Part shown: positions 21,309 through 26,821 of the stretch, one piece after another
Numbering within the stretch: position 1 is the first letter of the stretch
Layout: each line of letters opens with the position of its first letter
From: Nitrosopumilus sp.
Lineage (GTDB): Archaea; Thermoproteota; Nitrososphaeria; Nitrososphaerales; Nitrosopumilaceae
NCBI GenBank assembly: GCA_963662625.1
Contig: OY759726.1
Span: forward strand, 288,001-352,000
Direction: 5' to 3'
DNA length: 64,000 bases
The notes under the pieces: generated by a model
The model's database searches: none
What the model was told of the DNA's origin: nothing
Seen by the model: the letters and a program-made list of their open reading frames with translations, nothing else
Program-made: the position numbers and the translations under genes

Positions 21309-22442
21309 GTGTTGAAAAACCGGCGCCTGCCAAGAGTCATCCCGGGCAGCCCCCGCAAAAACCTGCCCAGCACCAGATCGCTGCTGGTAATATCGCTCGG
21401 ACTGGTCATACTGGCTGTAGTCTCGCCGTATTTTGTACATGCCGACACGGGCTCCGTCACAGTCGACGGCATCCCCTACGACGTAAGTTATGACGCCGTG
21501 GGAGTCGGCATTCTGGGGTTTGACACCGATCCGGAGTGGCCCGCCCTGATAGTGTCCATGGACGCGGCGTCTTCCGGGATCCTGGACGTCACACTTGGAA
21601 GCGACCTACTTGATTCCCTTTATGACGAAGCGGGAGGCGAGTTTGAGGTCCTGGCCGACGACGATCTGGCGGTCTTTTCCGAAACGGAAACCATGCCGTC
21701 CTCTAGGGCCCTGACCATCGTCGTGCCCGCGGGAACCCAAGAGATTTTGATCGGCACCATCCCGGCGGAGGATCCGGCGCCAGTAGACGCGGCGGAGGAT
21801 CCGGCGCCAGTAGACGCGGCGGAGGATCCGGCGCCAGTAGACGCGGCGGAGGATCCGGCGCCAGTAGACGCGGCGGAGGATCCGGCGCCAGTAGACGCGG
21901 CGGAGGATCCGGCGCCAGTAGACGCGGCGGAGGATCCGGCGCCAGTAGACGCGGCGGAGGATCCGGCGCCAGTAGACGCGGCGGAGGATCCGGCGCCAGT
22001 AGACGCGGCGGAGGATCCGATGCCAATCGGCGCGGCCGTGGACGCGTCAAGTTCCACATCCGTCACGGCCTCCGACGGCGCGACATCTGACATGGCATCC
22101 ACGGATCCGACAGGCGATACTGCCGATGATCCGGGCATGGGCACGGCTGACGACGCGGTAAATGCCGGGACGGTGACAGCGGACGGCCAGACGGTGGAAT
22201 GCGGGCCAGGCACAGTTCTTGAAGACGGAGTATGCATTCTGGACGAACCTGCCGATCCGCCGGAACCCCTAGAGACCGCCCAGTCAGAGTCGGCAACGGG
22301 CCAGGCGGAATCCGCCCCCGGCAAGCCGCTGCTCTCCGGACTCAGCTACGGGATCGTCATGGCGTTCATAATTGCAGGTGGCGTCGGGGCCCTCCTCGGC
22401 GCGGCAGCCAGGTCAAGCATGCGCAACAGGCAAAAGAACTAG
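21309..22442 (+). CDS. Membrane-anchored surface protein with acidic repeat stalk
   Basis: N-terminal hydrophobic segment, PAPVDAAED repeats, CGPGTVLEDGVC motif and C-terminal TM helix. Confidence 0.78.
   Translation: MLKNRRLPRVIPGSPRKNLPSTRSLLVISLGLVILAVVSPYFVHADTGSVTVDGIPYDVSYDAVGVGILGFDTDPEWPALIVSMDAASSGILDVTLGSDLLDSLYDEAGGEFEVLADDDLAVFSETETMPSSRALTIVVPAGTQEILIGTIPAEDPAPVDAAEDPAPVDAAEDPAPVDAAEDPAPVDAAEDPAPVDAAEDPAPVDAAEDPAPVDAAEDPAPVDAAEDPAPVDAAEDPMPIGAAVDASSSTSVTASDGATSDMASTDPTGDTADDPGMGTADDAVNAGTVTADGQTVECGPGTVLEDGVCILDEPADPPEPLETAQSESATGQAESAPGKPLLSGLSYGIVMAFIIAGGVGALLGAAARSSMRNRQKN
21765..22019 (+). repeat. Perfect 27-bp tandem repeat, 9 copies plus a partial
   Basis: Unit gcggaggatccggcgccagtagacgcg. 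Confidence 0.97.
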
Positions 22443-25689: not shown

Positions 25690-26270
25690 GCCAGTAACAC
25701 TTTCGGCGATCACGCCCCGCGGGACTGCCTCCACCCATGCGAGAAAATCAGCAGGAACCAACCCCGTCATGCTTGCAGTGCCGCCTTCCCAGGTTACTGT
25801 AGGCCCCAGCTCGTTCGTGGCGTACGTGTGGACATTCGCCACCACGCCCGGGATGGCCGGCTCGCCGGCATCAATTACGCCGTTTGCGCTGCCGTCCAGG
25901 CGTGCCGTAACGTCGAGCGTCACGGCCTCCGACGTCGCCACGGGGCGATTCCCACGCCAAACGTGGCGGGCGTTCCCATGGCAGGCTGCACGTAAGCGTA
26001 GAACGGGCCGGTGGCGACGGCGTGGCCAAGCGGGAAGCACGCAGCCTGCGCCAGCGCCGCCTCGGACGGGGCGGTGCCCTCGAACGCGTACGCGCCGTCA
26101 GAACACGTGACTGCCTCCGGCATGACCTGCGGGCTTGTCAGGCCTATGGCGTACATCGCGTGCCCCGGGATCCCGAACTCGCCGGGATCCCGGATCCCGT
26201 TGCCGTTGGAGTCGGTAAAGACGGTTCCCCGGATCGTGGTCCCGCTGCCGGATCCCCACGCGCGCGCCGG
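25690..26270 (-). pseudogene. Orphan frameshifted SdrD-B-like module, paralogous to the C-terminus of the 2259-5129 protein
   Basis: IRGTVFTDSNGNGIRDPGE...GAYAF, then after a frameshift near 25940 VTLDVTARLDGSANGVIDAGEP...VHTYA...LVPADF. No N-terminus. Confidence 0.75.
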
Positions 26271-26332
26271 GACGCGGCCGAGGGGGGCCAATAAAGTAAC
26301 CTAATATAGGACGCCTGAAACCTCAAAGCAAA

Positions 26333-26821
26333 ATGCAGGCAGTTACTGACGACAGGCTTTCGCTCCTTGCCGAAATGGAGGCAAGGTACGAGCAAAAAGA
26401 CACGGACTACTTTGTGGGCCTCCTGGATCACCCCGACTATGTCATAAGGGCCCGGGCCACCTGCATCCTGGTCGACTTTGGCGGCGAGGACAAGGTGCCC
26501 TTCATCGCCAGGGTGCTCAAGGGCGACTCCAACGAGCTGGTGAGGCACGAGGCGGCGTTCTCGCTGGGCCAGATGTGCTATTCCAGCTCCGTGCCCCCGC
26601 TGGCGGACGCCACGCTGAACGATCCGAGCATGTTCGTGAGGCACGAGGCCGCGATCGCCCTGGGGGTAGTCGGCAGCGCCGACGCAAAGGAGGCCCTGAA
26701 AAAGGCGCTGAACGACCGGGACAGGCCGGTGGCAGAGTCAGCCGTGGTCGCCCTGTCCAACATCGCGTTCATGGAAAAGTTAAGTAAGAACGAAAAGTTT
26801 GCAAGGTTGACGGGTGGATGA
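26333..26821 (+). CDS. HEAT/PBS-lyase repeat protein, half-size deoxyhypusine hydroxylase-like
   Basis: VRHEAAFSLGQM, VRHEAAIALG and VAES...AL motifs. Confidence 0.8.
   Translation: MQAVTDDRLSLLAEMEARYEQKDTDYFVGLLDHPDYVIRARATCILVDFGGEDKVPFIARVLKGDSNELVRHEAAFSLGQMCYSSSVPPLADATLNDPSMFVRHEAAIALGVVGSADAKEALKKALNDRDRPVAESAVVALSNIAFMEKLSKNEKFARLTGG

Follow-up and report, generated by a model that had tools for sequence, protein, structure and literature searches.

Could an aerobic ammonia-oxidising archaeon hold a deoxyhypusine hydroxylase (DOHH) of half the eukaryotic length? The question is raised by a gene for a small HEAT-repeat protein located in the window, i.e. the whole stretch of 64,000 nucleotides of Nitrosopumilus DNA analysed in this work. 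Hypusine has been reported in Sulfolobus, Pyrodictium and Thermoproteus (excerpts of PMC5178350), and according to excerpts of the same and of two further papers no archaeal orthologue of DOHH is known (PMC5178350, PMC6105217, PMC8153317). Another article treats DOHH as an oxidase that arose from a HEAT protein without enzyme function, a rare innovation at the level of the fold (PMC9040561). A literature search found no report of a half-size archaeal DOHH, with the proviso that subscription papers and supplements could mention one; term searches in the available portions of PMC13602936, PMC8573960 and bioRxiv 10.64898/2026.10.28.762692 added nothing on the subject. The host is an aerobic ammonia oxidiser, amoA and COX1 both residing in its genome; an aerobic archaeon had been surmised in the preliminary description of the locus, drawn from the letters alone.

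Translation of the frame bore out the HEAT-repeat protein with two His-Glu motifs, followed by VAES...AL, which had been read from the sequence (Table 1). The minus strand of the same interval is interrupted by stops. The Pfam domains HEAT_2 (E 3.5e-33) and HEAT_PBS are recognised in the product, and no NCBIfam family reaches its cut-off, NblB scoring 34.6 vs 300 and CpcE 20.9 vs 330. As judged from its 2382 relatives (E<=0.001) and from the near-invariance of the motifs, the frame is a real gene. A sigma-70 promoter scan returned nothing useful, the model not being suited to archaea.

Table 1. Positions of the features discussed in the text.
Feature	Position	Strand	Remarks
Half-DOHH candidate ORF	window 26333-26821	+	162 aa, ATG to TGA
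Motif VRHEAAFSLGQM	residues 70-81 of the window protein		
Motif VRHEAAIALG	residues 102-111 of the window protein		
VAES...AL	residues 133-141 of the window protein		
R39-x-R41, repeat 1	26447..26455	+	in the alignment, opposite R-[FYM]-R at the start of either DOHH lobe
His72-Glu73	26546..26551	+	human H56-E57 / H207-E208 (iron ligand and substrate-binding Glu, by alignment)
Gly79-Gln80	26567..26572	+	LGQ motif with human G214 and its N-lobe counterpart (substrate binding, by alignment)
His104-Glu105	26642..26647	+	human H89-E90 / H240-E241 (iron ligands, by alignment)
Conserved tail F156..T-G-G162	26798..26818	+	packs on the partner's first helix in the dimer model
AT-rich stretch	26290..26308	+	ends 24 nt 5' of the ATG; seen in the sequence; possible archaeal BRE/TATA promoter
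Short ORF with partial SdrD B-like domain	window 25920-26291	-	
ORF with acidic Pro/Ala repeats	window 21309-22442	+	
Paralogue B	L046:2089-2583		
Paralogue B	L047:2275-2778		
Paralogue B	L048:2487-2990		
Paralogue B	L049:2307-2810		
Paralogue B	L143:1459-1959		
Paralogue B	L145:1282-1794		
aIF5A insert	L226:230-261		
aIF5A insert	L227:232-263		
aIF5A insert	L228:218-252		
aIF5A insert	L229:230-264		
aIF5A insert	L231:410-431		
aIF5A insert	L232:421-442		
aIF5A insert	L233:224-245		
aIF5A insert	L234:437-466		
aIF5A insert	L235:397-426		
aIF5A insert	L236:444-464		

Conservation of single residues was counted in the best 120 of the 2382 relatives, the query among them; these are full-length and 80-86% identical, except for one longer ORF at 72%. 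H72 is found in 119/120 rows, and E73, H104, E105, G79 and Q80 in all 120, hence the His-Glu motifs, loss of which in orthologues would have spoken against the original idea, are conserved. H72, E73, H104, E105 and the Gly-Gln pair are also kept in 19/19 diverse rows of subfamily A1 and in 120/120 rows of subfamily A2 of the window family (family A), and Gly-Gln extends to 15/15 N-lobes and 15/15 C-lobes of eukaryotic DOHH and to 55/55 members of the marine family C described below; in 12 generic HEAT rows Gln is not among the three commonest residues at the Gln80 position. Paired [RK]HE motifs at the same spacing occur in 1/168 long generic HEAT proteins drawn from the same searches, and in these alignments the motif pair is more than a chance feature. 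Nearly all rows of family A have R39, and R41 is replaced by His in subfamily A2. F156, G161 and G162 are invariant in 32 family rows, and the corresponding codons vary synonymously. A ubiquitin-like role of the C-terminal Gly-Gly has been set aside: the C-terminus of subfamily A2 reads APRP, and in the model the tail touches the other chain of the dimer. Over 70 loci the median identity with the window protein is 79%, vs 83% for rpL15e (50 loci), 82% for SerA and 54% for the downstream cupredoxin. Of the best 120 relatives 17 carry a name, and six of these are automatically named 'deoxyhypusine monooxygenase' (JGI); names of ESM Atlas clusters also include 'DOHH', and annotation pipelines had already hinted at this identity for relatives. 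No match to the window protein was found among plasmid or phage records. The search against 50%-identity clusters was dominated by long repeat proteins, and the search for longer lengths returned, among 29 matches, only one eukaryotic DOHH and one tandem fusion. The latter (P0121, 363 aa) unites two family halves in a natural fusion, extended at the N-terminus by a hydrophobic stretch, and is known from one contig, as the single member of its cluster.

The eukaryotic enzyme (EC 1.14.99.29; human 4d4z/4d50, yeast Lia1) was represented by P0130, whose best PDB match is human DOHH (4d4z, E 8.9e-53) and for which no relative was found in viral contigs, and by 15 four-motif ORFs among the best 80 metagenome loci. 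Alignment by hhalign of the 32-row family profile with a 10-row eukaryotic DOHH profile (99.6%, E 2.8e-24, 116 columns) covers four repeats, in agreement with the proposed match to one DOHH half. Window protein and eukaryotic lobes share four HEAT repeats, His-Glu in repeats 2 and 3, LGQ, the R-x-R start and E-S/T in repeat 4. The iron anchors of human DOHH are H56, H89, E90, H207, H240 and E241, and its substrate contacts E57, E90, E208, E241 and two glycines, as given in the consulted part of PMC9117371; each of these residues has a conserved per-lobe counterpart in the window family. The differences are as manifest. The window protein has one lobe per chain, ending after 162 residues with a stop followed by a downstream gene, whereas eukaryotic DOHH has eight repeats in two lobes and about 300 aa; it lacks the SVDPAPP linker and the repeat-4 Cys, and identity to the DOHH lobes is only 26-31%. 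The Glu found in DOHH four residues after the second His is changed to Ile, a position held by Ile or Leu in 3/15 eukaryotic C-lobes too, and an additional N-terminal helix and the F..TGG tail are both in predicted dimer contact. Each chain carries two near-invariant His-Glu motifs, and four would surround one site only in the predicted homodimer. The protein is best seen as a variant which probably works like DOHH rather than as a proven member, the two-lobes-in-one-chain feature being absent.

Overall similarity is a poor guide here. Human DOHH is the best natural protein in PDB by sequence (E 7.9e-24), but designed alphaReps outrank it in sequence as well as in Foldseek E-value. A generic PBS-HEAT profile scores 94 bits on the window protein, vs 80 for the eukaryotic C-lobe and 63 for the N-lobe, a score biased upward by the choice of the generic set for likeness to the window family. 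Best matches to generic PBS-lyase HEAT proteins had been named as grounds to discard the DOHH hypothesis: in raw score they are indeed best, and this objection stands in part. It is accordingly the position of the motifs, the size, the dimer model and the context that carry the assignment, and not overall similarity. Raw scores would suit an ordinary PBS-lyase-type scaffold, with His-Glu pairs arisen by convergence and no metal site. The repeat scaffold is indeed common to CpcE/CpcF, NblB, YibA and alphaReps, which take the top raw scores; the paired His-Glu, near-invariant in the window family, is what these proteins lack.

The AF2 model of the monomer (mean pLDDT 93.1) consists of an N-terminal helix (residues 6-20), four HEAT hairpins (24-30/36-49, 52-64/68-81, 84-96/100-113 and 116-125/131-149) and a short C-terminal helix (154-159) with the tail. 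In the Foldseek list 4d4z has the highest query TM-score (0.74) and ranks 23rd by E-value; by VIA-align it is the best natural chain (Z 15.8, rmsd 3.2, 139 residues aligned), several unrelated HEAT proteins lying at Z 13-15. The homodimerisation originally postulated is also predicted: the model with two Fe scored 0.90 vs 0.26 for the best control, with at least 94% contact agreement among runs and pLDDT of at least 94, against a mark reached in calibration by 20/30 solved homodimers and 1/23 single chains. The score may owe something to likeness to the solved two-lobed 4d4z. The predicted interface is symmetric, includes residues 72, 73, 104 and 135 and the invariant tail, and its two-fold axis matches the symmetrical dyad of DOHH described in published excerpts. 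Residue 156 would contact 16' and 19' of the partner, and packing of the tail on the partner's first helix may explain the conservation of both ends. By bringing the His residues together, the model speaks against a plain scaffold.

DOHH is characterised by two irons in each active site and by a peroxo-diiron intermediate. According to the mechanism proposed, two chains of the window protein would pair head-to-tail, His72 of one meeting His104 and Glu105 of the other, and pairing would rebuild a di-iron centre of four His and two Glu, as the eukaryotic lobes do within one chain. The centre would bind iron and activate O2. DHS, encoded in the same genome, would place the aminobutyl-lysine (deoxyhypusine) on the lysine of the KPGKHG loop of aIF5A, and the centre would hydroxylate deoxyhypusine to hypusine. 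High confidence is placed in the reading that the gene encodes a genuine and conserved half-size homologue of DOHH, most probably a di-iron enzyme in the predicted homodimeric form. The more specific reading, a homodimeric deoxyhypusine hydroxylase acting on aIF5A, is given a probability of roughly 0.6.

How old is the half-size form? The tree was computed on 79 rows and 139 columns, leaving out 14 near-duplicate or partial rows and using 12 chosen generic rows as outgroup. All His-Glu-bearing halves fall on one side (100/98), and the window family (85/82) lies outside a clade (99/97) made of eukaryotic N-lobes, C-lobes and family C. The same two splits are found when the His-Glu columns and two long rows are removed (SH-aLRT 93 and 98). 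The split from generic HEAT proteins, at 93, is then unstarred, and was measured against the 12 chosen outgroup rows; this is the point at which the tree leaves room for convergence. Yet the grouping of all His-Glu-bearing halves, together with the motif counts and the dimer model, makes a plain scaffold without metal very improbable. Forcing the window family with the C-lobes costs 27.8 log units (p-AU 0.054), and a single clade of eukaryotic lobes excluding family C is not rejected (p 0.336). The notion of a pre-duplication form is thus backed by the best tree, in which the window family would have split before the eukaryotic DOHH duplication, a favoured and not a proven reading, while an origin from C-lobes is not rejected at the p-AU value given above.

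Family C makes up 55 of the best 80 metagenome loci (L161-L225, e.g. L164:3995-4477), on marine and a few freshwater archaeal contigs, and we infer a Marine Group II-like host. Like the window protein its members are stand-alone lobes (156-180 aa) with two His-Glu motifs and GQ. They are 43% identical to the C-lobes and fall inside the 99/97 clade, whereas identity with the window protein is only 28%; family C retains the Cys, the linker motif and the Glu that follows the second His at a distance of four residues, all of which family A lacks. Genes of mqn type and archaeal PriS flank them on the marine contigs. Sequence comparison makes family C the closer relative of DOHH, and single lobes a recurring, conserved form.

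The distribution of the gene is uneven. In a survey of 251 genomes of the class (E<=1e-8), which includes kin that are not independent, matches were found in families f1 (142/145, two of them weak), f49 (7/7), f50 (27/30, two with paralogue B only), f51 (1/1), f52 (3/3), f53 (4/9) and f55 (1/1). None were found in f54 (0/14), f56 (0/10), f58 (0/17) and f59-61 (0/5), and in f57 (5/8) only weak matches near 1e-9 were obtained. In the same sample COX1 is present in f1 and f49-f55, and was not found in f56-f61 (0/40). Strong half-DOHH matches are limited to COX1-positive families, the relatedness of the genomes applying here too; f54 has COX1 in 11/14 genomes and half-DOHH in 0/14. A survey of 301 genomes of the phylum added, outside f1, 7/11 genomes of f10, 2/11 of f29 and one weak generic match in f6, and none in 218 genomes of other families. 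Because of this last result the half-DOHH gene probably does not explain the hypusine of Crenarchaeota such as Sulfolobus, Pyrodictium or Thermoproteus, provided that these are among the genomes sampled. Family proteins also occur in records titled Ca. Caldarchaeum and Conexivisphaerales. The gene is near-universal in Nitrososphaerales and present in Caldarchaeum-type genomes.

The host genome (99.5% complete, one contig; 23,405 six-frame segments searched with the family and paralogue B profiles) has one half-DOHH copy and no paralogue. Its single aIF5A gene, with the KPGKHG loop, lies 27 kb from half-DOHH, and two DHS paralogues are present, one passing the canonical DHS cut-off, the other that of the 'homospermidine biosynthesis protein' of NCBIfam. 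Downstream of half-DOHH lies a cupredoxin ORF (Copper-bind); the overlap between the two, which had been noted, amounts to 8 nt if GTG 26814 is the start codon. In Nitrosopumilaceae-type loci a divergent redoxin gene lies upstream in 53/62 cases and cupredoxin downstream in 37/57; neither neighbour was seen in the inspected loci of other families. A functional link to cupredoxin, doubted from the start, is rejected, given its occurrence in 37/57 loci, its low identity and the presence of other genes downstream in other genera and families; the overlap is incidental.

Half-DOHH, DHS and aIF5A were mapped in 32 genomes outside f1, chosen among those with strong matches. In G201 (L034) half-DOHH adjoins two DHS genes, and in G338 (L136) aIF5A is its convergent neighbour. 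DHS lies within 7.3 kb of half-DOHH in 7/7 f10 genomes; in the six besides G201 it is 5.0 or 7.3 kb away, which counts as one inherited linkage, and at L058 and L060 the DHS found at 5 kb is of the canonical type. In 24/32 genomes no DHS or aIF5A was found within 18 kb, or they lie on other contigs. By a rough estimate (three target genes, two flanks, about 1,900 genes) chance adjacency would be about 0.3% per gene order, and two adjacencies are seen vs about 0.1 expected over some 30 genera. The adjacencies to DHS and aIF5A are two independent links and give modest support to a role in hypusine formation.

The same neighbourhoods bear on the substrate. A homodimeric di-iron oxygenase might have another substrate, such as free homospermidine as a product of the second DHS paralogue, or a modified lysine of another protein. 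Nearly all mapped genomes have two DHS paralogues, one above the 'homospermidine biosynthesis protein' cut-off, and the DHS directly beside half-DOHH in G201, in divergent orientation, is most like this paralogue; a long branch separates family A from eukaryotic DOHH, and paralogue B (see below) suggests that His-Glu HEAT halves have been put to other uses. However, aIF5A itself adjoins half-DOHH in G338, the DHS of L058 and L060 is canonical, and the Glu and Gly-Gln positions assigned to substrate binding agree with those of DOHH; a substrate other than aIF5A is regarded as rather unlikely. Two DHS paralogues stand side by side in several families (L240:3213-5217, L241:3179-5241; G427, G491, G500, G415, G377 and G395), which suggests an old cluster, in G201 also holding the half-DOHH gene.

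Paralogue B, of about 165 aa, has two His-Glu motifs and a patchy distribution in ammonia-oxidising archaea; it was not found in the host genome. In its six rows the common residues do not include an intact GQ. It often resides among regulatory genes, including a response regulator, and is possibly a di-iron sensor. By analogy, the window protein might be a dimer which binds iron or oxygen through the same ligands and catalyses nothing, as a sensor, an iron chaperone or a holder of aIF5A. This would fit the absence of a conserved reductase partner, the upstream redoxin gene being confined to Nitrosopumilaceae-type loci among those inspected. Restriction to COX1-positive families and the links with DHS and aIF5A fit a pathway enzyme better, and both Glu assigned to substrate binding are invariant, so that a non-catalytic dimer seems quite improbable. 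A last arrangement is the heterodimer, in which window-family protein and paralogue B would form a DOHH split over two genes. B has an N-lobe-like last repeat, and Glu where family A has Ile, and many Nitrosopumilaceae carry both, but B is patchy and devoid of Gly-Gln; such a pairing is hardly credible in general, and is rejected for the host genome, where the B profile finds only the window ORF.

A homodimeric hydroxylase of aIF5A would be a candidate for the activity that, according to excerpts of the hypusine papers, has no known gene in archaea. The protein is small, soluble and encoded by a single-copy gene in cultivable, globally abundant ammonia oxidisers, and a direct assay is available. 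If active, it would imply that homodimerisation turned a HEAT scaffold into an oxygenase ahead of the gene duplication, and that modification of a translation factor is tied to O2 in archaea. A wider scenario is advanced tentatively: aerobic Nitrososphaeria and Caldarchaeum-type archaea would make true hypusine by a homodimeric half-DOHH which branched off before the duplication, a living ancestral oxygenase whose gene formerly stood in a cluster with dhs and aIF5A. Were this correct, archaea would hold, with the marine half-size family, two independent DOHH lineages, overlooked because of their half length.

Mapping of aIF5A revealed that in 11/32 genomes (f49, f52, f55) the gene is split at the codon of the hypusine lysine. 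In 10/13 stretches the insert is 21-35 nt long and folds into a canonical bulge-helix-bulge whose inner stem shows compensatory changes; once it is excised at the bulges, KPGKHG and an open frame are regained. The variant in L230 is shorter and missed the pattern; two of the 13 stretches, and the host gene, are uninterrupted. The insert is probably an mRNA intron comparable to the one in cbf5, and no case of an aIF5A intron was found in the literature search. Within the window, the short ORF between the redoxin gene and half-DOHH contains a partial SdrD B-like domain (Pfam E 1e-6), and looks like the remnant of a surface-protein gene. Farther upstream, an ORF contains an acidic Pro/Ala repeat of 9 residues in about eleven tandem copies, preceded by a signal-like start and followed by a membrane segment at the C-terminus.
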